A DNA stretch of 13,546 nucleotides from a virus (Duplodnaviria; Heunggongvirae; Uroviricota; Caudoviricetes), in IMG/VR virus record IMGVR_UViG_2565956716_000001; one strand, written 5' to 3'. Positions 1,392 to 13,546 of the stretch are shown here, in pieces. The notes under the pieces were generated by a model. It worked only from the letters and a program-made list of their open reading frames with translations. It was not told the DNA's origin and made no database searches. Position 1 is the first letter of the stretch. Each line of letters starts with the position of its first letter. The position numbers and the translations under genes are program-made.

Positions 1392-1696
1392 TATTTCACC
1401 TCTTGCTGTGTCATTGTTGAAAAATGGATAACAGCTCGTTGCTGCCAGACGATCCAACCGAGAGTCATATCCCATGCCATGTATTCGTTATCGCCGTTTT
1501 TTGCTCTCCGACGATCTACTAAGTCACCGAAACGCTTTTCCATGAATAATTCATAGGCTTCGCGTTCATCTGGCTCTACTTCCAGAGATACGAGTGCGAT
1601 TTCATAAGCACGGCGCTCAATATCGTCTCGAACCTCTAGGCTGCTGATTCGTTCTTTGATTTCTTTAATCAGTTCTTTATTGGTAAATGTGGTCAT
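1391..1696 (-). CDS. Hypothetical acidic phage early protein (ea-like)
   Basis: 101-aa ORF whose ATG overlaps the upstream stop (TAATG) and whose stop overlaps the xis ATG, suggesting translational coupling. Codon usage is coherent; no family recognised. Confidence 0.5.
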   Translation of the reverse strand: MTTFTNKELIKEIKERISSLEVRDDIERRAYEIALVSLEVEPDEREAYELFMEKRFGDLVDRRRAKNGDNEYMAWDMTLGWIVWQQRAVIHFSTMTQQEVK

Positions 1697-1980
1697 TATG
1701 CTCCAGCCTCCGGTGCTTTTGGCATTACTGCCCAGTGAGTGATATTGACGTTTTCAAGGTCCCCGACCTGAAATGTCCACTGCCATTCTCCGGTTTCTTT
1801 TTGTCCCCAGGTGTACCAGAGAGAACGCCAGCCAATCAGCCAGCCTTCTCCATTAGCATCAAATAACAGAACACTTTCATTTGCTGGTGGCAGTTCAGCT
1901 GACACTGGTATTATTTTGTTTTCCAGTGCCCGCACATTTAGCTTCAAGCGCGTCGAATTTACGTACCAGGTACTCAGCAT
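1696..1980 (-). CDS. Hypothetical phage protein with DUF551-like C-terminus
   Basis: 94-aa ORF. The C-terminal W-rich segment ending ..ITHWAVMPKAPE resembles the DUF551 signature (..THWMPLPEPP) common in enterobacterial prophage early regions. Chained to the downstream ORF by stop/start overlap. Confidence 0.5.
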   Translation of the reverse strand: MLSTWYVNSTRLKLNVRALENKIIPVSAELPPANESVLLFDANGEGWLIGWRSLWYTWGQKETGEWQWTFQVGDLENVNITHWAVMPKAPEAGA

Positions 1981-2049
1981 TTGTTTCGTTCACTTTCAGA
2001 TCTCGCGGTACACATTTCCCGCGAAGAAACCCTTCCATTTCGAAAACAT

Positions 2050-2256
2050 TCATGCGCATTTGCGTAACTCCGATAAATCGTTAAAACGTTCCATAAACAT
2101 CCCGTAGGCATGACCCGGTGCCAGTGGAATCACGTTGAACATCTCTGTTGCCGGGATGCCTTCCAGTACAGGCCAGAAAGAGCCATCATCAAGCCCGAGA
2201 TCGCGGCGTTCGGTTGCCAGCATGATGAGATCGGCATATTTCACGGGTGTACTCAT
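2050..2256 (-). CDS. Hypothetical small protein (first gene of leftward int-proximal operon)
   Basis: 68-aa ORF from the ATG at 2256 (the ORF track extends to a TTG at 2274). No strong RBS and no recognised domain. Confidence 0.3.
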   Translation of the reverse strand: MSTPVKYADLIMLATERRDLGLDDGSFWPVLEGIPATEMFNVIPLAPGHAYGMFMERFNDLSELRKCA

Positions 2257-2777
2257 AACTGGGGGTAACCGCAATGCGTCGAATGTTTATCAGCTTAACG
2301 TTGCGAAGCTTCAGGCAGCGGCATTTTCTCAACTGTCAGATTCTGACCCGTCAAAATCTGACGCATCAAAATCTGACCCGTCAAAATTTGATGCGTCGAA
2401 ATCTGGCAAAAAAGCGGGTTTTCACCCGTCAGAATCTGGCGGGGATCCGTCAGTAAAATCAAAACATGATCCGTCAGATAAAAAAACTTCTCGTCCGGAC
2501 GCTTCGCAACCGGACACGCAGACGGCTGAACAGGAGTTTTTAACTCGCCATCCTGATGCGGTTGTATTCAGCCCTAAAAAGCGCCAGTGGGGAACGCAGG
2601 ATGATTTGACCTGCGCACAGTGGCTCTGGAAAAAAATCATCGCCCTGTACGAGCAGGCCGCCGAATGTGACGGCGAGGTGGTTCGTCCCAAAGAACCGAA
2701 CTGGACAGCCTGGGCAAACGAAATTCGCCTGATGTGTGTGAAGAGTGGTATCTGTCAGGGAATTACGTGGGGGCTTA
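2222..2777 (+). pseudogene. Lambda O-like replication initiator remnant (5'-truncated), containing the origin iterons
   Basis: The open frame runs through the iteron array, encoding a low-complexity linker (SDSDPSKSDASKSDPSKFDASKSG...), then about 90 protein-like codons (..AQWLWKKIIALYEQAAECDGEVVRPKEPNWTAWANEIRLMCVKSG..). Where an N-terminal DNA-binding domain should be encoded, the sequence is occupied by minus-strand ORFs. Beyond 2777 the frame turns G/R-rich and overlaps a better gene in another frame. Confidence 0.35.
2336..2410. repeat. Tandem 15-bp direct repeats (five copies, consensus TCAAAATCTGACCCG); putative ori iterons
   Basis: Read directly: tcagattctgacccg / tcaaaatctgacgca / tcaaaatctgacccg / tcaaaatttgatgcg / tcgaaatctggcaaa. 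Degenerate copies (gtcagaatctggcg, gtcagtaaaatc, gtcagataaaaaaac) and A-rich tracts follow to about 2485. Confidence 0.65.
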
Positions 2778-3104
2778 ATGACGACGTTAACTCAATGCCA
2801 GCAGCAGGTGCTGGATATGCTGATTTCTTACCAGAAAGAACGTGGCTTCCCGCCAACCAATCAGGAGGTGGCTACCATGCTGGGATACCGTTCAGTGAAT
2901 GCAGCGGTGGAGCATCTTCGCGCACTGGAGAAAAAAGGCGTCATCACGATAAAGCGTGGCGTGGCCCGGGGCATCACGCTTCATACCGCGGTGAAGGACG
3001 ACGACAGCGAGGTGGCCGGGATTATCCGCGCACTGCTTGCTGGTGAGGAAAACGCCAGGCTGCGTGCAGCCCACTGGTTACATGAGAGGGGGCTGAAAGT
3101 ATGA
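2778..3104 (+). CDS. LexA N-terminal DNA-binding-domain-like protein (winged HTH) lacking the S24 peptidase domain
   Basis: 108 aa from the ATG at 2778 (GGGGG upstream). MTTLTQCQQQVLDMLISYQKERGFPPTNQEVATMLGYRSVNAAVEHLRALEKKGVI aligns along its length with the LexA N-terminus ([56 protein letters not shown]). It ends in a short helical-looking tail and its stop overlaps the rusA ATG (ATGA). Confidence 0.7.
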   Translation: MTTLTQCQQQVLDMLISYQKERGFPPTNQEVATMLGYRSVNAAVEHLRALEKKGVITIKRGVARGITLHTAVKDDDSEVAGIIRALLAGEENARLRAAHWLHERGLKV

Positions 3105-3490
3105 AGCTGATTCTGCCTTTTCCACCCAGCGTGAACACCTACTGGCGACACCCCAACAAAGGGGCATTTGCTGGTAAGAGCCTGATAAGCGCGGCGGGGC
3201 GAAAATTCCAGAGTGCGGCGTGCACAGCAATAGTTGAGCAGTTACGTCGTCTGCCGAAACCAACGTCGGCACCTGCTTCAGTGGAGATCGTGTTGTTTCC
3301 TCCGGATAACCGGATCCGCGATCTGGACAACTATAACAAGGCGCTGTTTGACGCCCTGACCCACGCGGGTGTGTGGGAAGACGACAGTCAGGTGAAAAGA
3401 ATGCTGGTGGAGTGGGGACCGGTTATCCCGGAAGGGAAGGTCGAGATCACTATCAGTAAGTACGAGAAAACGGCGGGTGCAGCCGCCTGA
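3101..3490 (+). CDS. rusA: RusA-family Holliday junction resolvase
   Basis: 129 aa with GAGAGGGGG RBS. The motif RDLDNYNKALFDALTHAGVWEDDSQV matches the RusA catalytic-region signature (RDLDN...FDAL...DD.QV). Confidence 0.85.
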   Translation: MKLILPFPPSVNTYWRHPNKGAFAGKSLISAAGRKFQSAACTAIVEQLRRLPKPTSAPASVEIVLFPPDNRIRDLDNYNKALFDALTHAGVWEDDSQVKRMLVEWGPVIPEGKVEITISKYEKTAGAAA

Positions 3491-3509
3491 TCAAGAGGAG
3501 AAACGAAGT

Positions 3510-4307
3510 ATGAATAATCTGATGGTCATTGATGGTATTGAAGTTCGTCGTGATGCTTATGGGCGTTACAGCCTGAACGATCTGCACAGGGCTGCCGGTT
3601 CTCTGGATAAGCATAAGCCTGCATTCTGGCTCCGCAATGAGCAAACTGAACGTTTAATAAGCGAGTTGCAGATTTGCAACTCGGTCAATATAGAGCCAGT
3701 TAACGTTATTCGTGGCGGAAATAACCAGGGGACGTATGTCTGCAAAGAACTGGTGTATGCCTATGCAATGTGGATCAGCCCGTCATTCCATCTGAAGGTG
3801 ATCCGTACTTTCGATATGGTAACCAGCGCATCGGAAAAATTATCCGGGCAGGCTGCTGACAAGATGCAGGCTGGCGTGATTCTGCTGGACTTTATGCGCC
3901 GGGAGTTAAACCTGTCTAACTCTTCAGTGCTTGGTGCCTGTCAGAAACTCCAGGAGGCTGTTGGCTTACCGAATCTGGCACCGCGCTATGCCATTGATGC
4001 TCCTGCTGACGCGCCTGATGGCTCAAGCCGTCCCACGCTGTCACTGAGTGCACTGCTGAAGCAGTATGGTATCCGCCTGACAGCTAATCAGGCATATCAC
4101 CAGATGGTGAAGCTGGGGATCGTCGAGCAGCGCGAACGATACAGCCGTACCGCGATTAACAACATCAAAAAATTCTGGTCGCTGACAGCGAAAGGCTGCA
4201 TGTTCGGCAAGAACATCACCAGTCCCGCAAATCCGCGCGAGACGCAGCCGCATTTCTTCGAATCCCGATTCCCTGAGCTGTTAAAGCTGCTCGATACCGT
4301 TCATTGA
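3510..4307 (+). CDS. KilA-N domain DNA-binding protein (Roi/antirepressor-like)
   Basis: ATG at 3510 with AGAGGAG RBS. The N-terminal MNNLMVIDGIEVRRDAYGRYSLNDLHRAAG...KPAFWLRNEQT is a typical KilA-N domain; the C-terminal half is unassigned. Confidence 0.8.
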   Translation: MNNLMVIDGIEVRRDAYGRYSLNDLHRAAGSLDKHKPAFWLRNEQTERLISELQICNSVNIEPVNVIRGGNNQGTYVCKELVYAYAMWISPSFHLKVIRTFDMVTSASEKLSGQAADKMQAGVILLDFMRRELNLSNSSVLGACQKLQEAVGLPNLAPRYAIDAPADAPDGSSRPTLSLSALLKQYGIRLTANQAYHQMVKLGIVEQRERYSRTAINNIKKFWSLTAKGCMFGKNITSPANPRETQPHFFESRFPELLKLLDTVH

Positions 4308-4308
4308 G

Positions 4309-5304
4309 GTGACCGTGAGAGCACTACTGACCCCTGAAATTGCCCCGCGTATGGGGATCGTATTGTTCAGGCCCGGTTCAGAGCTGATGCCCCTGTTTAT
4401 GCAGGGGCGTGTACTGCTGGAGCCTGAGCCGGAGCATTATTCATCTTTCGCCAGTGGTGCCGTTCCCGCGGCATCACAACCGCTGGCGGATGATCCTGCC
4501 GTTCGGGCCGTGTTCCGTAATGAGGCAGTGATTCGTCGTGCTGGTGGGGTGGAATGTCTTGAAAGCTGGTTACTTCGTGAAAAAGGCTGCCAGTGGCCTC
4601 ATTCCGACTGGCACAGCGAGAACATGACCACAATGCGACACGCGCCGGGCGCAATCCGTCTGTGCTGGCACTGCGATAATCAGTTACGTGATCAGTTCAC
4701 GGAGCGGCTGGAATCAATGGCAACGGATAACTGTGCCCGTTGGGTGTTGTCTGTAGTCCGTCGGGATCTCGATTTTAATGATAACCATGCCGTGACAATG
4801 CCGGAACTGTGCTGGTGGCTGGTTCGTAATGACCTGGCGGATGCCTTACCGGAAAGCGCAGCCCGTAAGGCACTGAGATTACCGAAGTCTGTTTTGCCGT
4901 CTGTCACTCGGGAAAGTGACCTTGTGCCTTCGGTTCCTGCCACCAGCATTATCCAGGATAAAGCGAAAAAGGTGCTGGCGCTGAAAGTGGATCCGGAGTC
5001 GCCGGAGTCTTTTATGTTACGCCCCAAACGTCGTCGCTGGGTTAATGAACAGTACACGCGCTGGGTTAAGACGCAGCCGTGTGCATGTTGTGGAAAGCCA
5101 GCTGATGATCCGCATCATCTGATAGGCCATGGTCAGGGTGGAATGGGTACAAAAGCGCATGACCTTTTTGTGCTGCCTTTGTGCAGAAAACACCACGACG
5201 AACTGCATGCGGATACCGTGGCATTTGAAGAGAAGTATAGCTCCCAGCTGGAGCTGATATTTCGTTTTATCGATCGCGCACTGGCGATTGGTGTGCTGGC
5301 CTGA
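4309..5304 (+). CDS. DUF968-family protein with C-terminal HNH-like motif
   Basis: 331-aa ORF. The C-terminus [31 protein letters not shown] is the cysteine/histidine motif of DUF968 proteins found next to Q in lambdoid prophages. Start is uncertain: GTG at 4309 sits 1 nt after the upstream stop, with internal ATG alternatives. Confidence 0.7.
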
Positions 5305-5321
5305 TTTTGTGGAGAAAGTTA

Positions 5322-5705
5322 ATGCGTGATATTCAGATGGTTCTTGAACGTTGGGGAGCGTGGGCGGCTAATAATCATGAAGATGTGACCTGGTCGTCCA
5401 TTGCCGCCGGTTTTAAGGGATTAATTCCTTCAAAAGTAAAATCTCGCCCGCAATGTTGTGACGATGACGCGATGATCATTTGCGGGTGCATGGCCCGTCT
5501 GAAAAAGAACAACAGCGATTTGCACGATTTATTAGTAGATTATTATGTAGTCGGTATGACATTCATGTCACTGGCAGGTAAGCATTGCTGCTCTGATGGT
5601 TATATCGGGAAAAGGTTACAGAAGGCTGAGGGCATAATTGAAGGGATGTTAATGGCATTAGATATCCGGTTAGAGATGGATATCGTTGTTAATAACTCTA
5701 ATTAA
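5322..5705 (+). CDS. quuD: Late-gene antiterminator Q (DLP12 QuuD-type)
   Basis: 127 aa from the ATG at 5322 (GGAGAAAG RBS); the ORF track begins 5 codons earlier at a [21 protein letters not shown]... with a Cys-rich zinc-binding region ([12 protein letters not shown] ... HCC) fits the small Q antiterminator family. Confidence 0.85.
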
Positions 5706-5728
5706 TATGCCAATTGTTTACTGAAAGT

Positions 5729-5756
5729 TATTAAAAATGGGGCGTTGCAACGCCCC
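5729..5756 (-). terminator. Intrinsic terminator for minus-strand (porin) transcripts
   Basis: Perfect palindrome GGGGCGTTGCAACGCCCC at 5739-5756, followed on the minus strand by ATTTTTAAT. On the plus strand it is followed by CAAAAATAAA, so it works in one direction only. Confidence 0.55.
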
Positions 5757-5844
5757 CAAAAATAAAGGGTAATATATAACAGAAGGTTTATATAGTTAGA
5801 AGCAAGGTTGTGCTCCTAAAGGAAGTGGCTTGAGGGAGCCACTT

Positions 5845-5885
5845 ATATGTTGGGGAGGCAACGCCTCCCGCAACATATCTTTTTC
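5845..5885 (+). terminator. Intrinsic terminator on plus strand downstream of Q (candidate tR'-like)
   Basis: Long hairpin ATATGTTG-GGGAGGC-AAC-GCCTCCC-G-CAACATAT at 5845-5878, followed by CTTTTT at 5879-5884. It lies about 140 nt after the Q stop, matching the lambda arrangement in which a short PR' transcript ends at tR' unless Q-modified. Confidence 0.5.
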
Positions 5886-5894
5886 GTAATCAGA

Positions 5895-6992
5895 TTAGAA
5901 CTGGTAAACCAGACCTACAGCAACGATGTCATCAGTGCTTACACCGAGTGCTTTAGTGAAGTCATTTTTGTCAAGCAGGTTGATTTTGTAATCAACGAAA
6001 GTAGACATATTTTTGTTGAAGTAATAGGTTGCACCTACATCAACATATTTGACTAAGTCCTGATCGCCCCATACTCCAAGATCCTTACCTTTAGATTGCA
6101 GGTAAGCAACGGACGGACGCAGACCGAAATCGAACTGATATTGTGCAACAGCTTCGAAGTTTTGAGCTTTATTAGCAACGAAGTGATCAGCAAATACAGT
6201 CATATTCTGGGTTTCAGAATAGGTAGTGGCCAGGTAAATGTTGTTAGCGTCATATTTCAGACCTGCGGCCCAAACTTCTGCATTTTTACCGGAAGCAAAT
6301 ACTTCAGGAAGAACTTTCCCTGCATTAACTTGAGTGTCGGTACGATCAGATTTCGCATAAGTTGCACCGATACCGAATCCTTCGTATTCATAGGTAGCAG
6401 AGAAACCGAAGCCATCACCGTTACCTTCGGTGTAGTTATCGAAATCGCTACGATCGTTTTTGCCTTGGTACTGAGCAGCAAAGTTCAGACCATCAACCAG
6501 ACCAAAGAAGTCGTTGTTACGATAGGTTGCAACACCAGTGGTGCGACCAGTCATGAACACATCTGTTTGGGTCCAGGTATCGCCACCGAATTCTGGCAGA
6601 ACGTCAGTCCACGCACCGATGTCGTATGCTACACCGTAGTTACGGCCGTAATCGATTGAGCCGTAGTCACCGAATTTCAGGCCTGCAAATGCAAGACGGG
6701 TTTTGTCTTTGGAGGAACCTTGAGATTCAGCGCGGTTGCCTTTGAATTCATATTCCCACTGACCGAAACCAGTCAGCTGATCGTTGATTTGGGTTTCGCC
6801 TTTGAAGCCCAGACGAACATAAGTAGTATCACCATCATCTGCATCGTTAGAGGAAAAGTAGTGCTTGGCATTAACTTTCCCGTACAGATCCAGCTTGTTA
6901 CTGTCTTTATTATAAATTTCAGCTGCCTGAGCAGACATCGCCATCAGTACTGATGCAGCTACAGCAGAAATTGCCACTGTTAATTTTTTCAT
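5895..6992 (-). CDS. nmpC: Outer-membrane general porin NmpC (OmpC/OmpD/Lc family), intact
   Basis: 365 aa with signal peptide [27 protein letters not shown] and a C-terminal ..VAVGLVYQF beta-barrel motif ending in Phe. ATG at 6992. Uninterrupted ORF in this window. Confidence 0.95.
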
Positions 6993-7470
6993 CGTGAGCC
7001 CTTTTTTTTGAACTATTATTAAAAAATGATGTCACTGCGCGATAAATATTCATCTAATCAATGTGATTATTTCAAGATGTAAGTTTTAGTTTCTCATTTA
7101 ATTTGTGAAGTAGATCTCTATTTTTATCTGAACTTTTTCTATCGAAACCTATTTATGGCTCTTATTTGAACAAAAATAAATCTATTAGCTAATTTATATT
7201 AATGGCTGTTATTTATGGTGGTTCTATAATTTGTCTGTTTAATTTAAACCAGCTAAAAATAACGCTGGAAATTATTTATTGGTTATTTGTTGAAGTTTTC
7301 TTATGTATTTGTGGTGGTGTTTTGAACACTCGGTAGCATTCTCATAAATATCATTCAGTGGTTTACGTACGTAAAAAATTGGTTATGCTGTTAAGAGTGG
7401 TTACTTCGTCACACAGCTTAAACCCGCCGTCGAGCTGGTTTTTCCATTTTTTGAGTCTCGATATTAGCTG
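6993..7470. promoter_or_regulatory. AT-rich regulatory region upstream of nmpC (porin promoter, likely nucleoid-protein bound)
   Basis: About 480 bp of strongly AT-rich non-coding sequence between the divergent porin and lysis genes, with no ORF of 60 aa or more. No promoter elements could be assigned with confidence. Confidence 0.3.
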
Positions 7471-7528
7471 ATAACTCAATACCTGAGTTATTCACTGACT
7501 CGGAGTCAGTTACGTTTCTGCTTTTTTG
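7471..7528 (+). terminator. Tandem hairpins plus T-tract upstream of the holin gene (possible terminator or operator)
   Basis: ATAACTCA-ATACC-TGAGTTAT (7471-7491) and ACTGACT-CGG-AGTCAGT (7494-7510), then CTTTTTTG at 7521-7528. The T-run lies about 11 nt from the second stem, so terminator function is uncertain. Confidence 0.3.
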
Positions 7529-7580
7529 CGATACGTTGTATTCCCTCAATTTACACCCGCTTTGTCTGCGAGGTGGGGTT

Positions 7581-7796
7581 ATGAAATTCATGGATAAGTT
7601 AACAACTGGAGTCGCCTATGGCACCTCAGCAGGTAGTGCCGGTTACTGGTTTTTACAGCTGCTCGATAAAGTCACTCCCTCACAGTGGGCAGCAATAGGT
7701 GTGCTGGGTAGCCTGGTATTTGGCCTGCTGACGTACCTGACAAACCTTTATTTCAAGATTAAAGAAGATAAGCGCAAGGCTGCGAGAGGTGAATAA
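7581..7796 (+). CDS. essD: Class II holin (phage 21 S / pinholin type) with dual-start motif
   Basis: 71 aa from the ATG at 7581 (GAGGTGGGG RBS), with a second in-frame ATG at 7590 (M-K-F-M), the dual-start arrangement of S21 holin/antiholin. Two transmembrane segments and a charged C-terminus ([13 protein letters not shown]). Stop overlaps the next ATG as TAATG. Confidence 0.9.
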
Positions 7797-8293
7797 TGCC
7801 TCCATCATTACGAAAAGCCGTTGCTGCTGCTATTGGTGGCGGAGCAATTGCTATAGCATCAGTGTTAATCACTGGCCCAAGTGGTAACGATGGTCTGGAA
7901 GGTGTCAGCTACATACCATACAAAGATATTGTTGGTGTATGGACTGTATGTCACGGACACACCGGAAAAGACATCATGCTCGGTAAAACGTATACCAAAG
8001 CAGAATGCAAAGCACTCTTGAATAAAGACCTTGCCACTGTCGCCAGACAAATTAACCCGTATATCAAAGTCGATATACCGGAAACAACGCGCGGCGCTCT
8101 TTACTCATTCGTTTACAACGTGGGTGCTGGCAATTTTAGAACATCGACGCTTCTTCGCAAAATAAACCAGGGCGATATCAAAGGCGCATGTGATCAGCTG
8201 CGTCGCTGGACATACGCTGGCGGTAAGCAATGGAAAGGCCTGATGACTCGTCGTGAGATTGAGCGTGAAGTCTGTTTGTGGGGGCAACAGTGA
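7796..8293 (+). CDS. rrrD: SAR endolysin (T4-lysozyme-like muramidase, phage 21 R type)
   Basis: 165 aa. The Gly/Ala-rich N-terminal segment [20 protein letters not shown] is a signal-anchor-release domain. Catalytic Glu35-Asp44-Thr50 are in the expected spacing ([18 protein letters not shown]). Confidence 0.92.
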
Positions 8294-8751
8294 GCAGAGT
8301 AACCGCGATTATATCCGCTCTGATTATCTGCATCATCGTCAGCCTGTCATGGGCGGTCAATCATTACCGTGATAACGCAATCGCCTACAAAGCCCAGCGC
8401 GACAAAAATGCCAGAGAACTGAAGCTAGCGAACGCGGCAATTACTGACATGCAGATGCGTCAGCGTGATGTTGCTGCGCTCGATGCAAAATACACGAAGG
8501 AGTTAGCTGATGCGAAAGCTGAAAATGATGCTCTGCGTGATGATGTTGCCGCTGGTCGTCGTCGGTTGCACATCAAAGCAGTCTGTCAGTCAGTGCGTGA
8601 AGCCACCACGGCCTCCGGCGTGGATAATGCAGCCTCCCCCCGACTGGCAGACACCGCTGAACGGGATTATTTCACCCTCAGAGAGAGGCTGATCACTATG
8701 CAAAAACAACTGGAAGGAACCCAGAAGTATATTAATGAGCAGTGCAGATAG
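8290..8751 (+). CDS. rzpD: i-spanin Rz
   Basis: 153 aa from the GTG at 8290, which overlaps the endolysin stop (GTGA); an alternative GTG lies at 8278. N-terminal transmembrane helix followed by a coiled-coil-like periplasmic domain. Confidence 0.85.
8510..8692 (+). CDS. rzoD: o-spanin Rz1 lipoprotein, embedded in the +1 frame of Rz
   Basis: 60 aa with AAGGAG RBS at 8497-8502 and ATG at 8510. Lipobox LVVVGC and a proline-rich mature part ([15 protein letters not shown]), wholly nested inside the Rz gene. Confidence 0.8.
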
Positions 8752-8782
8752 AGCTGACCATATCGATGGGCAACTCATGCAA

Positions 8783-9076
8783 TTATTTTGAGCAATACAC
8801 ACGCGCTTCCAGCGGAGTATAAATGCCTAAAGTAATAAAACCGAGCAATCCATTTACGAATGTTTGCTGGGTTTCTGTTTTAACAACATTTTCTGCGCCG
8901 CCACAAATTTTAGCTGCATCGACAGTTTTCTTCTGCCCAATTCCAGAAACGAAGAAATGATGGGTGATGGTTTCCTTTGGTGCTACTGCTGTCTGTTTGT
9001 TTTGAACAGTAAATGTCTGTTGAGCACATCCTGTAATAAGCAGGGCCAGCGCAGTAGCGAGTAGCATTTTTTTCAT
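8783..9076 (-). CDS. borD: Bor lipoprotein (serum-resistance / outer-membrane lipoprotein)
   Basis: 97 aa with lipoprotein signal MKKMLLATALALLITGC. Matches the lambda Bor family along its whole length as recalled. Confidence 0.9.
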   Translation of the reverse strand: MKKMLLATALALLITGCAQQTFTVQNKQTAVAPKETITHHFFVSGIGQKKTVDAAKICGGAENVVKTETQQTFVNGLLGFITLGIYTPLEARVYCSK

Positions 9077-9366
9077 GGTGTTATTCCCGATGCTTTTTGA
9101 AGTTCGCAGAATCGTATGTGTAGAAAATTAAACAAACCCTAAACAATGAGTTGAAATTTCATATTGTTAATATTTATTAATGTATGCCAGGTGCGATGAA
9201 TCGTCATTGTATTCCCGGATTAACTATGTCCACAGCCCTGACGGGGAACTTCTCTGCGGGAGTGTCCGGGAATAATTAAAAACGATGCACACAGGGTTTA
9301 GCGCGTACATGTATTGTATTATGCCAACGCCCCGGTGCTGACACGGAAGAAACCGGACGTTATGAT

Positions 9367-9777
9367 TTAGCGTGGAAAGATTTGTGTAGTGTTCTGAATG
9401 CTCTCAGTAAATAGTAATGAATTATCAAAGGTATAGTAATATCTTTTATGTTCGTGGATATTTGTAACCCATCGGAAAACTCCTGCTTTAGCAAGATTTT
9501 CCCTGTATTGCTGAAATGTGATTTCTCTTGATTTCAACCTATCATAGGACGTTTCTATAAGATGCGTATTTCTTGAGAATTTAACATTTACAACCTTTTT
9601 AAGTCCTTTTATTAACACGGTGTTATCGTTTTCTAACACAATGTGAATATTATCTGTGGCTAGATAGTAAATATAATGTGAGACATTGTGACGTTTTAGT
9701 TCAGAATAAAACAATTCACAGTTTAAATCTTTTCGCACTTGATCGAATATTTCTTTAAAAATGGCAACCTGAGCCAT
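9367..9777 (-). CDS. ybcV: YbcV-like (DUF1398-type) protein
   Basis: 136 aa from the ATG at 9777 (GGAAGG about 9 nt upstream); the ORF track extends to 9900 (177 aa). AT-rich gene in the position occupied by the DUF1398 'envelope protein' ORF of lambda and DLP12. Family assignment is from position and recalled features. Confidence 0.55.
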
Positions 9778-10062
9778 TGGTAAAACCTTCCATGTGATAC
9801 GAGGGCGCGTAGTTTGCATTATCGTTTTTATCGCTTCAATCTGGTCTGACCTCTTTGTGTTTTGTTGATGATTTATGTCAAATATTAGGAATGTTTTCAA
9901 TTAATAGTATTGGTTGCGTAACAAAGTGCGGTCCTGCTGGCATTCTGGAGGGAAATACAACCGACAGATGTATGTAAGGCCAACGTGCTCAAACCTTCAT
10001 ACAGAAAGATTTGAAGTAATATTTTAACCGCTAGATGAAGAGCAAGCGCATGGAGCGACAAA

Positions 10063-10269
10063 ATGAATAAAGAACAATCTGCTGATGATCCCTCCGTGGA
10101 TCTGATTCGTGTAAAAAATATGCTTAATAGCACCATTTCTATGAGTTACCCTGATGTTGTAATTGCATGTATAGAACATAAGGTGTCTCTGGAAGCATTC
10201 AGGGCAATTGAGGCAGCGTTGGTGAAGCACGATAATAATATGAAGGATTATTCCCTGGTGGTTGACTGA
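10063..10269 (+). CDS. ybcW: YbcW-like small protein
   Basis: 68-aa ORF ([22 protein letters not shown]...) divergent from the ybcV-like gene, in the position of DLP12 ybcW and lambda p79. Confidence 0.6.
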
Positions 10270-10433
10270 TCACCATAACTGCTAATCATTCAAACTACTT
10301 AACCTGTGACAGAGCCAACACGCAGTCTGTCACTGTCAGGAAAGTGGTAAAACTGCAACTCAATTACTGCAATGCCCTCGTAATTAAGTGAATTTACAAT
10401 ATCGTCCTGTTCGGAGGGAAGAACGCGGGATGT

Positions 10434-10628
10434 TCATTCTTCATCACTTTTAATTGATGTATATGCTCTCTTTTCTGACGTTAGCCTCCGACGGCAGGCT
10501 TCAATGACCCAGGCTGAGAAATTCCCGGACCCTTTTTGCTCAAGAGCGATGTTAATTTGTTCAATCATTTGGTTAGGAAAGCGGATGTTGCGGGTTGTTG
10601 TTCTGCGGGTTCTGTTCTTAGTTGACAT
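10434..10628 (-). CDS. ylcI: Small ribbon-helix-helix (Arc/CopG-like, DUF3950) DNA-binding protein
   Basis: 64 aa. Basic N-terminus (RTRRTTTRNIRF) followed by a predicted strand-helix-helix (PNQMIEQINIALEQKG..FSAWVIEACRRRL). GGGG RBS upstream of the ATG at 10628. Confidence 0.6.
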   Translation of the reverse strand: MSTKNRTRRTTTRNIRFPNQMIEQINIALEQKGSGNFSAWVIEACRRRLTSEKRAYTSIKSDEE

Positions 10629-10779
10629 GAGGTTGCCCCGTATTCAGTGTCGCTGATTTGTATTGTCTGAAGTTGTTTTTACGTTAAGTTGATGCAGATC
10701 AATTAATACGATACCTGCGTCATAATTGATTATTTGACGTGGTTTGATGGCGTAGATGCACGTTGTGACATGTAGATGA

Positions 10780-11016
10780 TAATTATTATCATTTTGCGGG
10801 TCCTTTCCGGCGATCCGACAGGTTACGGGGCGGCGACCTCGCGGGTTTTCGCTATTTATGAAAATTTTCCGGTTTAAGGCGTTTCCGTTCTTCTTCGTCA
10901 TAACTTAATGTTTTTATTTAAAATACCCTCTGAAAAGAAAGGAAACGACAGGTGCTGAAAACGGGCTTTTTGGCCACTGTCGTTTCCTTTCTCTGTTTTT
11001 GTCCGTGGAATGAACA
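10780..11016. other. Lambda-type cos site: cosQ, cosN (12-nt cohesive end GGGCGGCGACCT at 10828-10839), cosB
   Basis: The string ..gatccgacaggttacg|gggcggcgacct|cgcgggttttcgctatttatgaaaattttccggtttaaggcgtttccgttcttcttcg.. matches the joined right and left ends of phage lambda as recalled. The Nu1 start lies about 190 nt from cosN, as in lambda. Confidence 0.8.
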
Positions 11017-11562
11017 ATGGAAGTCAACAAAAAGCAGCTGGCTGAAATTTTCGGCGCGAGTATCCGTACCATTCAGAACTGGCAGGAGCAGGGAATGCCC
11101 GTTCTGCGAGGCGGTGGGAAGGGTAATGAGGTGCTTTATGACTCTGCCGCCGTCATAAAATGGTATGCCGAAAGGGATGCTGAAATTGAGAACGAAAAGC
11201 TGCGCCGGGAGGTTGAAGAACTGCGACAGGCCAGCGAGACAGATCTCCAGCCAGGGACTATTGAGTACGAACGCCATCGACTTACGCGTGCGCAGGCCGA
11301 CGCACAGGAGCTGAAAAATGCCAGAGACTCCGCTGAAGTGGTGGAAACCGCATTCTGTACTTTCGTGCTGTCGCGGATCGCAGGTGAAATTGCCAGTATT
11401 CTCGACGGGATCCCCCTGTCGGTGCAGCGGCGTTTTCCGGAACTGGAAAACCGACATGTTGATTTCCTGAAACGGGATATCATCAAAGCCATGAACAAAG
11501 CAGCCGCGCTGGATGAACTGATACCGGGGTTGCTGAGTGAATATATCGAACAGTCAGGTTAA
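11017..11562 (+). CDS. nohD: Terminase small subunit Nu1
   Basis: 181 aa, [36 protein letters not shown]..., collinear with lambda Nu1 over its full length. N-terminal winged HTH and P-loop-like GGGKG. Confidence 0.95.
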
Positions 11563-13546
11563 CAGGCTGCGACATTTTGTCCGCGCCGGGCTTCGCTCAC
11601 TGTTCAGGCCGGAGCCACAGACTGCCGTTGAATGGGCGGATGCTAATTACTATCTCCCGAAAGAATCCGCATACCAGGAAGGGCGCTGGGAAACACTGCC
11701 CTTTCAGCGGGCCATCATGAATGCGATGGGCAGCGACTATATCCGTGAGGTGAATGTAGTGAAGTCTGCCCGTGTCGGTTATTCCAAAATGCTGCTGGGT
11801 GTTTATGCCTACTTTATAGAGCATAAGCAACGCAACACACTTATCTGGTTGCCGACGGATGGTGATGCCGAGAACTTTATGAAAACCCACGTTGAGCCGA
11901 CCATCCGCGATATTCCGTCGCTGCTGGCGCTGGCTCCGTGGTATGGCAAAAAGCACCGGGATAACACGCTCACCATGAAGCGTTTCACCAATGGTCGTGG
12001 CTTCTGGTGCCTGGGCGGTAAAGCGGCAAAAAACTACCGTGAAAAGTCGGTGGATGTGGCGGGTTATGATGAACTTGCTGCCTTTGATGATGATATTGAA
12101 CAGGAAGGCTCTCCGACGTTCCTGGGTGACAAGCGTATTGAAGGCTCGGTCTGGCCAAAGTCCATCCGTGGCTCCACGCCCAAAGTGAGAGGCACCTGTC
12201 AGATTGAGCGTGCAGCCAGTGAATCCCCGCATTTTATGCGTTTTCATGTTGCCTGCCCGCACTGCGGGGAGGAGCAGTACCTTAAATTCGGCGATAAAGA
12301 GACGCCGTTTGGCTTCAAATGGACGCCGGATGATCCCTCCAGCGTGTTTTATCTCTGCGAACATAATGCCTGCGTCATCCGCCAGCAGGAGCTGGACTTC
12401 ACTGATGCCCGTTATATCTGCGAAAAGACCGGGATCTGGACCCGTGATGGCATTCTCTGGTTTTCGTCATCCGGTGAAGAGATTGAGCCACCGGACAGCG
12501 TGACCTTTCACATCTGGACGGCGTACAGCCCGTTCACCACCTGGGTGCAGATTGTCAAAGACTGGATGAAGACGAAAGGGGATACGGGAAAACGTAAAAC
12601 CTTCGTGAACACCACGCTCGGTGAGACATGGGAAGCGAAAATCGGTGAACGTCCGGATGCTGAAGTGATGGCAGAGCGGAAAGAGCATTATTCAGCGCCC
12701 GTTCCTGACCGTGTGGCTTACCTGACTGCCGGTATCGACTCCCAGCTGGACCGCTACGAAATGCGCGTATGGGGATGGGGGCCGGGTGAGGAAAGCTGGC
12801 TGATTGACCGGCAGATTATTATGGGCCGCCACGACGATGAACAGACGCTGCTGCGTGTGGATGAGGCCATCAATAAAACCTATACCCGCCGGAATGGTGC
12901 AGAAATGTCGATATCCCGTATCTGCTGGGATATTGGCGGGATTGACCCGACCATTGTGTATGAACGCTCGAAAAAACATGGGCTGTTCCGGGTGATCCCC
13001 ATTAAAGGGGCATCCGTCTACGGAAAGCCGGTGGCCAGCATGCCACGTAAGCGAAACAAAAACGGGGTTTACCTTACCGAAATCGGCACGGATATTGCAC
13101 CACCAGATATTCCTGCTGGCTTTGTGGCTGTTTTCAACAGTGATGAGGCATCGTGGCATCTCGTTGAAGATCATCGGGGTAAAACGGTTTATGACGTGGC
13201 TTCCGGCGACGCGTTATTTATTTCTGAACTCGGCTCATTACCGGAAAATGTCACCTGGTTATCCCCGGAAGGGGAGTTTCAGAAGTGGAACGGCACAGCT
13301 TGGGTGAAGGATACGGAAGCAGAAAAACTGTTCCGGATCCGTGAGGCGGAAGAAACAAAAAACAGCCTGATGCAGGTAGCCAGTGAGCATATAGCGCCGC
13401 TTCAGGATGCTGTGGATCTGGAGATCGCAACGGAGGAAGAAACCTTGTTGCTGGAAGCCTGGAAAAAGTATCGGGTGTTGCTGAACCGTGTTGATACATC
13501 AACTGCACCTGATATTGAGTGGCCTACGAACCCTGTCAGGGAGTAA
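11537..13546 (+). CDS. Terminase large subunit gpA (N-terminal ~519 aa) fused in frame to the C-terminal ~150 aa of tail-fibre assembly protein Tfa; deletion remnant
   Basis: GTG start at 11537 overlapping the Nu1 3' end. Residues 1-519 follow lambda gpA ([14 protein letters not shown]...[10 protein letters not shown]...). After ..LTEIGTD (codon 519 at 13091-13093) the sequence continues [35 protein letters not shown]...[13 protein letters not shown], which is the Tfa C-terminal region. The window ends on its stop codon. Confidence 0.88.

Follow-up and report, generated by a model that had tools for sequence, protein, structure and literature searches.

The open reading frame at positions 11537-13546 (plus strand; 669 codons plus stop) of the 13,546-nucleotide stretch of DNA analyzed here, hereafter the window, encodes a chimera in which residues 1-519 of a lambda-type terminase large subunit (gpA) are followed by residues 45-194 of a tail fibre assembly protein (Tfa). 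We consider it very probable that this ORF is a deletion scar in a DLP12-type prophage, which would have arisen in steps and most likely persists as an inert and recent remnant. The allele is a further case of the known gpA::Tfa decay scar (compare aaaD/tfaD of Escherichia coli K-12) and not a new system. An initial annotation of the window had proposed both the identity of the chimera and a history in which the fusion junction marks the removal of the whole head and tail gene block at one stroke; the former stands but the latter is not supported.

The composition of the ORF was established from a program-made ORF list, its translation, Pfam searches and alignment to lambda, and comprises 519 residues of gpA followed by 150 of Tfa. 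The gpA-derived part (11537-13094, plus strand) shows 97.9% nucleotide identity to lambda 711-2268, and 517 of its 519 residues are those of lambda gpA. Of the differences from lambda, 32 are synonymous and 2 non-synonymous, a ratio which reflects inheritance from a formerly working gene. This part contains the complete packaging ATPase domain (GpA_ATPase, residues 47-285, 4e-50), with the Walker A segment KSARVGYS at residues 76-83, and approximately four-fifths of the nuclease/maturation domain: the GpA_nuclease match (residues 322-544, 3e-53) covers only model positions 2-235 of 294. Homology to A stops at lambda nt 2268 of 2636, and the C-terminal 122 residues of gpA, including the prohead (portal) binding tail, have been replaced by Tfa. 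Both the retention of KSARVGYS and the loss of the gpA C-terminus had been recognized in the initial annotation. In other respects the ORF begins as lambda gpA does, with a GTG start, an overlap with the small-subunit gene and a cos site directly upstream.

The Tfa-derived part (13095-13546, plus strand; residues 45-194 and the stop codon) is 93% identical to lambda 22106-22557 and carries the Caudo_TAP domain [PF02413] in its entirety (fusion residues 547-666, model positions 1-130 of 131, 5e-44), which identifies the C-terminal 150 residues as Tfa. Unlike lambda Tfa, it possesses no start codon of its own and lacks the first 44 residues. One would expect tfa to be a separate gene following that of its cognate tail fibre, and no stf gene is present in the window or downstream of it. 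The translation was inspected for a hidden stop codon or frameshift, and there are none within 11537-13546. A damaged start codon was also considered and rejected, since GTG is the native start of gpA and occurs in all 116 A copies compared, lambda among them.

The same 2,010 bp are found unchanged in three finished E. coli chromosomes (MSHS 472, OHT76-1 and 18AR0366), in which the element is flanked by tRNA-Arg (argU) and intD on one side and by ybcY-tfaX-ompT on the other. Because of these flanks, with intD beside the tRNA gene and ompT downstream, and of a gene order matching that of K-12 DLP12, the window can be assigned by sequence to an E. coli cryptic lambdoid prophage of the DLP12 type, located at the tRNA gene argU, which the initial annotation had not recognized. 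Its first 1259 positions are 99.3% identical to the K-12 intD region, and positions 5953-11844 show 98.1% identity to K-12. The window comprises intD, an early-late region with RusA, KilA-N, DUF968 and QuuD, an intact porin gene, essD-rrrD-rzpD, bor, ybcV, ybcW, ylcI, cos, nohD and the fusion; the late part reproduces the DLP12 series quuD, porin, essD, rrrD, rzpD, bor, ybcV, ybcW, ylcI, nohD, A', 'tfa.

From Rz across cos into A (window 8291-13094) the sequence is about 98% identical to lambda. The cosN site lies at 10816-10839 (plus strand), with the lambda right end meeting the left end at 10827/10828; of the 25 nt preceding this point all but one agree with lambda, as do all 40 nt following it. 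The gene nohD (11017-11562, plus strand), which specifies a homolog of the small terminase subunit gpNu1, overlaps the start of the fusion as its counterpart does in lambda. K-12 DLP12 is known to share 98% identity over 3,353 bp with lambda; recombinants are viable, and nohD is functional in lambda (PMC3945230).

K-12 DLP12, with aaaD (a pseudogene) and tfaD, occupies the same site from argU to ompT, with the same quuD-nohD order and the same downstream ybcY and tfaX, and it likewise harbors an A'::'tfa fusion, which runs in frame from the gpA GTG to the tfa stop codon (247 aa). The two fusions are independent. In K-12 the join, with its 3-bp overlap, is between lambda nt 1018 and tfa codon 50, whereas in the window nt 2268 is joined to tfa codon 45; the K-12 product, gpA(1-102)::Tfa, keeps some 102 gpA codons against 519, and its tfa allele differs from that of the window by 6%. 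The window differs further in its intact porin gene (no IS5) and in its early region. Among complete genomes, 366 contain the K-12 junction, and those listed are mostly laboratory derivatives of K-12.

Alignment to the lambda genome places the breakpoint in the window. Positions 10828-13094 correspond to lambda 1-2268 (cos, nu1 and A codons 1-519) at 97.9% identity, and positions 13088-13546 to lambda 22099-22557 (tfa from codon 43) at 93%, so that A ends at lambda 2268, the tfa match runs from lambda 22099, and the two matches overlap by 7 nt. At base level, judged against the nearest unfused relative, identity with the A parent extends through 13094 and identity with the tfa parent begins at 13091; the crossover therefore lies in the tetranucleotide GATA (13091-13094, plus strand), within ACGGATA of A and ACCGATA of tfa, which agree at 6 of 7 bases. 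It falls inside the acg gat codons at 13088-13093, which are T518-D519 of gpA and have T43-D44 of Tfa (ACC GAT) as their counterpart; the Thr-Asp dipeptide is thus common to both parents, as had been supposed. The deletion ends read ...GGCACGGATA/CCGCG in A and ...AGTACCGATA/TTGCA in tfa, and the product ...GGCACGGATA/TTGCA.

Known and collinear parents with a few identical bases at the join (GATA, or 6 of 7 over ACNGATA) are the marks of a microhomology scar, and the other scars which we mapped base by base display 0-8 bp of microhomology. The microhomology-mediated deletion put forward in the initial annotation is in agreement with this; as to the recombination mechanism itself, we infer short-homology illegitimate recombination, replication slippage or end joining.

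A relative which has retained the missing genes is present in E. coli O43 strain RM10042. This strain carries an apparently complete prophage of approximately 40 kb at the same argU site, with the same gene order and many identical proteins. Its gene set includes A, W, portal, protease, decoration protein, capsid, FI, FII, Z, U, V, G, T, H, M, L, K, I, J and lom, together with a 1,023-aa stf and a 194-aa tfa product, after which come the same ybcY and tfaX. The RM10042 prophage is 99.4% identical to the window over the 10.4 kb that they share (window 2738-13094), and the window is collinear with it save for three gaps, of 5.17 kb, 684 bp and 20.67 kb.

The 5.17-kb gap is an older scar at 2263-2270 with the microhomology GGGTAACC (L011 10826-15995 in RM10042); it represents the 5.2-kb immunity/replication block which RM10042 keeps, and its loss adds to the defectiveness of the element. 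The 684-bp deletion, with its scar at 2738-2740 and the microhomology GTG, removed the 3' part of an O fragment and most of the PerC-family gene yfdN, and is confined to the sub-lineage of the window. The 20.67-kb gap extends from A codon 520 to tfa codon 44 and comprises the head and tail genes, that is, the 20.7-kb A-to-tfa block of RM10042. As a result of the three gaps the element is without all head and tail genes, the repressor and the replication functions. Since no head or tail gene is left it is predicted to be incapable of forming virions, in accordance with the initial annotation.

The junction at 13091-13094 does not, however, appear to be the scar of the event which removed this block. 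Twelve complete genomes are approximately 99.9% identical to the window on both flanks and carry 1,103 bp of extra sequence between them; strain 13TMH22 was taken as their representative for detailed comparison. Annotated in this intermediate structure are nohD, A at its full length of 641 aa, W, fragments of a portal and of a tail protein, and tfa with 177 aa. It keeps 103 portal codons, a 157-bp island of stf and tfa from codon 18 onward, the first 17 codons being gone. Mapped to RM10042, its first scar joins the portal gene (L011 28389) to stf (46524) with an overlap of 0-4 bp, depending on the parental allele, and its second, with the overlap CTG(G)CCG, joins stf (46679) to tfa codon 18 (48102). 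Exactly 12 of 5,426 complete E. coli genomes possess the B'::'stf scar.

The window is closely allied to this structure. Its A part differs from that of 13TMH22 at 2 of 1,558 nt, as against 34-39 nt for the other A alleles compared over all 1,558 nt, and its tfa part at 0 of 430 nt, as against 23-26 nt for RM10042 and K-12. The sole structural difference between the window and 13TMH22 at the fusion locus is one deletion of exactly 1,103 bp. Since the closest relatives already lack the head and tail block and differ by this amount only, at least three deletions, of about 18.1, 1.4 and 1.1 kb, would together make up the 20.7-kb gap. On grounds of parsimony the direction was presumably from the intermediate to the window, for a scar-bearing structure cannot be regained from a scar-free one.

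The following course of events is very probable, the first two losses being shown by the comparisons and the third by the junction sequence. The ancestor would have been a complete lambda-like prophage, such as is still present in RM10042. A first loss of 18.1 kb, from portal codon 104 to a point inside stf, and a second of 1.4 kb, from stf to tfa codon 17, would have left nohD, A, W, a portal stub, the 157-bp stf island and a truncated tfa. A third loss, of 1,103 bp between ACGGATA in A and ACCGATA in tfa, would then have taken W and both older scars, along with the final 122 codons of A on one side and tfa codons 18-44 on the other, with A and tfa presumably being joined in frame by chance. 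A single microhomology deletion of some 20 kb in an intact lambda-like prophage, bringing A codon 519 directly to tfa codon 45, would produce the same junction microhomology and is mechanistically possible, because ACGGATA and ACCGATA are both present in the complete RM10042 prophage. We regard it as unlikely, since by far the closest relatives had already lost the block through different scars and are here only 1,103 bp removed from the window, whereas the complete prophage that was found differs by 5% in its tfa allele and by 2.5% in its A allele.

When related genomes were examined for the same scar, the exact junction was present in 3 of the 5,426 complete E. coli genomes. As many as 25 public contigs specify the exact 669-aa protein, and each of the nine places examined proved to be the DLP12/argU locus. 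The three carriers of the junction are 3-5 SNPs apart over 28-30 kb and consequently represent one clone. Two changes have arisen in the A part after it parted from the intermediate, one of which is synonymous and the other, L260F, non-synonymous. On these comparisons the fusion allele appears to be recent and clonal. Decay is continuing, in that sub-lineages with extra deletions exist. GCA_016984255.1 and GCA_000488035.1 are 100% identical to window 1537-13546, the 684-bp deletion included, while another carrier, unlike the rest, diverges from the window near 3559-3566.

What the chimera might do can be considered in the light of lambda terminase, in which the C-terminal tail of gpA binds the prohead. 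Lambda TerL has its packaging ATPase domain at the N-terminus and its maturation (endonuclease) domain at the C-terminus, and functions in an oligomer of TerL1-TerS2 protomers (PMC7229814). From this established knowledge, the fusion product could still bind NohD and ATP; deprived of the end of the nuclease/maturation domain and of the prohead-binding tail at the C-terminus, it should be able neither to mature cos nor to dock on proheads. The Tfa part would have no tail fibre to chaperone. The fusion takes the position that gpA has in the late operon of lambda, so that late transcription, whenever it extends this far, probably leads to its translation; the ORF has most likely been kept open only for want of time since the deletion.

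A domesticated function, with the in-frame chimera retained because it is useful, strikes us as very unlikely. The product might, for example, act as a poison subunit which binds NohD or gpNu1 and disables the terminase ring when lambdoid phages infect or, alternatively, serve as a means of expressing the Tfa chaperone. Such a role would be compatible with the intact ORF, its native GTG start and overlap with nohD, and with a complete ATPase domain and N-terminus; it would also be compatible with the ability of DLP12 nohD to work in lambda (PMC3945230) and with a terminase acting as an oligomer of protomers (PMC7229814). K-12, moreover, possesses its independent in-frame gpA::Tfa fusion, and a pattern of intact, in-frame fusions would also fit selection. 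The allele is, on the other hand, rare and clonal (3 of 5,426 genomes) and too recent for constraint to be visible in it, with a non-synonymous change among its two, and neighbouring alleles truncate A at many different positions, often without preserving the frame. Selection for in-frame joins was considered for the junctions as a group and rejected: 8 of 16 comparable junctions lie in the frame of the partner where one third would be expected, an enrichment which is not significant.

NCBI PGAP divides the ORF between a pseudogene and a protein of 400 aa and names part of it "terminase gpA endonuclease subunit"; in other NCBI records the full 669-aa protein [AYM20580.1 and others] is called "phage terminase large subunit family protein." The division could hint at a defect, but the translation is uninterrupted and the same junction is present in the three finished chromosomes and on the 25 contigs of independent assemblies, and there is next to no likelihood that it stems from a chimeric contig or a hidden frameshift; the junction is real. 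For annotation purposes the label should read gpA'::'Tfa remnant.

As a deletion scar, the fusion is an ordinary find, adding one more allele to those that document the decay of a textbook cryptic prophage. It does furnish a clean and datable series at a single locus, which leads from the complete prophage by way of A-W-B'::'stf::'tfa to the A::tfa fusion and on to further deletions in the early region. The sole point of wider interest is that breakpoints are re-used exactly among independent alleles, which, if mechanistic, would bear on prophage domestication. We regard this as a lead and not as a result.

At least seven different right partners, that of the window included, share the left end at lambda A nt 2268 (...ACGGATA/), and the joins lie at three chromosomal prophage sites (argU/DLP12, Qin and att-lambda). 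The partners, which were collected by pattern scans and from further finished genomes, are tfa 48184 in the window; stf L011 47169 in E24377A, in a prophage beside bioA/ybhB, with the 7-bp overlap ACGGATA; stf 47146 in WP2-S18 at the Qin locus; stf 47498 in TOK-001 at the Qin locus and in FT130 at the DLP12 locus; stf ~47925 in L015; J 43077 in L014 and strain HH107; and stf 46471 in L280. For six of the seven right partners the overlap computed against RM10042 ends in TA. In the case of L015 the scripted overlap is none, owing to a nearby SNP, and the parent, read directly, is ...CGGTA/TTGG, with TA at the join here as well. A near-identical join two bases away connects lambda 2266 to K 40048 (L162). 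By its SNPs, the deletion event in the window is independent of the other joins at lambda 2268; descent of its junction from an allele of the E24377A or L015 type is ruled out, these being 35-39 SNPs distant as against 2 for 13TMH22.

Control scans at four other positions in A yielded 0, 0, 0 and 2 real junctions, and the two share lambda 1643 with different partners. The best 80 related loci all cover the full 1-519 and so constitute a biased sample for truncations. A less biased sample of 120 IMG/VR loci contained ten real junctions with a left end in A; two of these lie at lambda 880, with different partners, and one at lambda 1018, the site used in K-12, again with a different partner. Right-hand sites are re-used as well (stf 46524-46533, stf 47163-47169, stf 47494-47499 and Z 33302-33309), and the breakpoints which recur with different partners are lambda 880, 1018 and 1643, stf 46527, 47169 and 47498, and Z 33307.

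With roughly ten junctions spread over 1,926 positions, a rough estimate puts the probability of one coincident pair at about 2% and that of the pattern as a whole far lower; chance coincidence of the breakpoints is therefore unlikely. Since the left breakpoint of the window is common to at least six other alleles with different right partners, its choice is not random, and a simple model in which any microhomology suffices is incomplete. We would raise, as a tentative and rather doubtful proposition, that lambda 2268 is a site-determined hot spot and that the decay of lambdoid prophages is channelled by a specific activity through a few defined sites of breakage or strand switching. The activity may be a topoisomerase- or gyrase-type exchange between preferred sites, a transposase-like enzyme specific for TA, or a fixed 3' end which primes on short matches.

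Three other explanations for the site were tried and rejected. A hairpin or palindrome at lambda 2268 is not indicated by folding of 80 nt, which gave z values of -1.2 for the T allele and +0.3 for the C allele of the window, no better than the controls. Comparison by eye with a DNA-invertase (Gin/Pin/Hin) pseudo-site, using the 12-2-12 crossover consensus, revealed no convincing match, and the join is wrongly placed for such a site. A Chi-like sequence matching at 7 of 8 positions, CCACCAGA, lies just to the right of the tfa breakpoint (window 13100-13107), and the remaining re-used sites have nothing comparable.

Reciprocal use of site 2268, with the right side kept, was not found in the IMG/VR scan. 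When collections of metagenomes and of species-representative genomes were scanned with the breakpoint pattern, almost all matches were chance ones in unrelated organisms, and one real additional allele, L280, came to light. Small islands preserved between two scars, like that in stf of the intermediate, are common, and were seen at lengths of 157, 258 and 310 bp and 1.36 kb.

The left breakpoint of the fusion, lambda A nt 2268 (...ACGGATA|), is not peculiar to the window. In a comparison of junctions it was found with at least seven different right-hand partners across other E. coli prophages, which occupy the sites of DLP12, Qin and att-lambda. It occurs at 13088–13094 in the window, at 5552–5558 in locus L008 and at 4373–4379 in L014, and also in L015, L280 and L308 to L311. 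The dinucleotide TA is common to both parents at these joins, as computed for six partners and read directly for the seventh. Lambda positions 880, 1018 and 1643 are likewise re-used as breakpoints with differing partners, as are right-hand sites within stf and Z.

Coordinates marked L011 refer to E. coli O43 strain RM10042, whose argU site is occupied by a lambdoid prophage of the DLP12 type, approximately 40 kb long and apparently complete (L011 8557–48635; NZ_CP028122.1 574556–614634). It possesses all the head, tail, stf and tfa genes together with an immunity region, and may represent the "cryptic" DLP12 in its living form.

One scar, which links A nt 2268 to stf (L011 47494–47498), is present in identical form at the Qin locus of strain TOK-001 (L308 2552–2600) and at the DLP12 locus of strain FT130 (L309 2552–2600). 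Because these two loci in two strains hold the same scar, we suggest that recombination in the flanking homology can transfer copies of a deletion scar from one lambdoid prophage to another resident in the same cell.

Several prophages retain a short late-gene island stranded between two deletion junctions: L002 (8430–8586, 157 bp), L009 (6105–6362, 258 bp), L014 (4378–4689, 310 bp) and L097 (1038–2399, 1.36 kb). Such islands are commoner than expected from two random deletions, and could be the product of multi-step template switching within one event. In the Qin locus of strain KL53 (L310) A breaks off at L011 27864 and continues into J at 43065, whereas in L014 and strain HH107 A breaks off at 27514 and continues into J at 43077; the J island and the join to stf that follow are the same. 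This difference looks like the result of a secondary, roughly 366-bp deletion which removed an older junction, a parallel of the step that produced the window's fusion.

A comparable chimera exists in K-12 MG1655, where the aaaD pseudogene and tfaD form a single uninterrupted frame of 247 codons (L003 17355–18098; MG1655 581354–582097) specifying gpA(1–102)::Tfa(about 50–194). Since the annotated start of TfaD is an in-frame ATG inside gpA, the annotated K-12 TfaD protein is itself a terminase-Tfa chimera. PGAP breaks the uninterrupted 669-codon ORF of the window's type in two, calling one portion an "incomplete" terminase pseudogene and the other a 400-residue "terminase gpA endonuclease subunit" (WP_315442195.1), as at L001 14181–16010 (NZ_CP041302.1) and also in L005 and L006. 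Despite the terminase label, the C-terminal 150 residues of WP_315442195.1 are Tfa.

The early region of the window bears two further microhomology deletion scars. That at 2263–2270 (microhomology GGGTAACC) marks a 5.17-kb deletion that took out the repressor, cro-like, ymfL and O 5' genes. That at 2738–2740 (GTG), found only in the window's sub-lineage, marks a 684-bp deletion in which the O fragment lost its 3' part and yfdN most of its length; a 303-codon ORF (2135–3046) running across it is probably a chance frame.

The cosN site (10816–10839) is essentially identical to that of lambda, differing at a single position among the 25 nt left of the nick site and at no position in the 40 nt on its right, and the cosB region (10960–11016) shows a 1-nt indel near lambda 134–150. 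Given this intact cos and the functional-looking nohD gene alongside, the terminase of a helper phage could cleave the chromosome there. The NmpC-type porin gene (5895–6992, minus strand, 365 residues) is intact in the window, whereas its counterpart in K-12 DLP12 is disrupted by an IS5 insertion.
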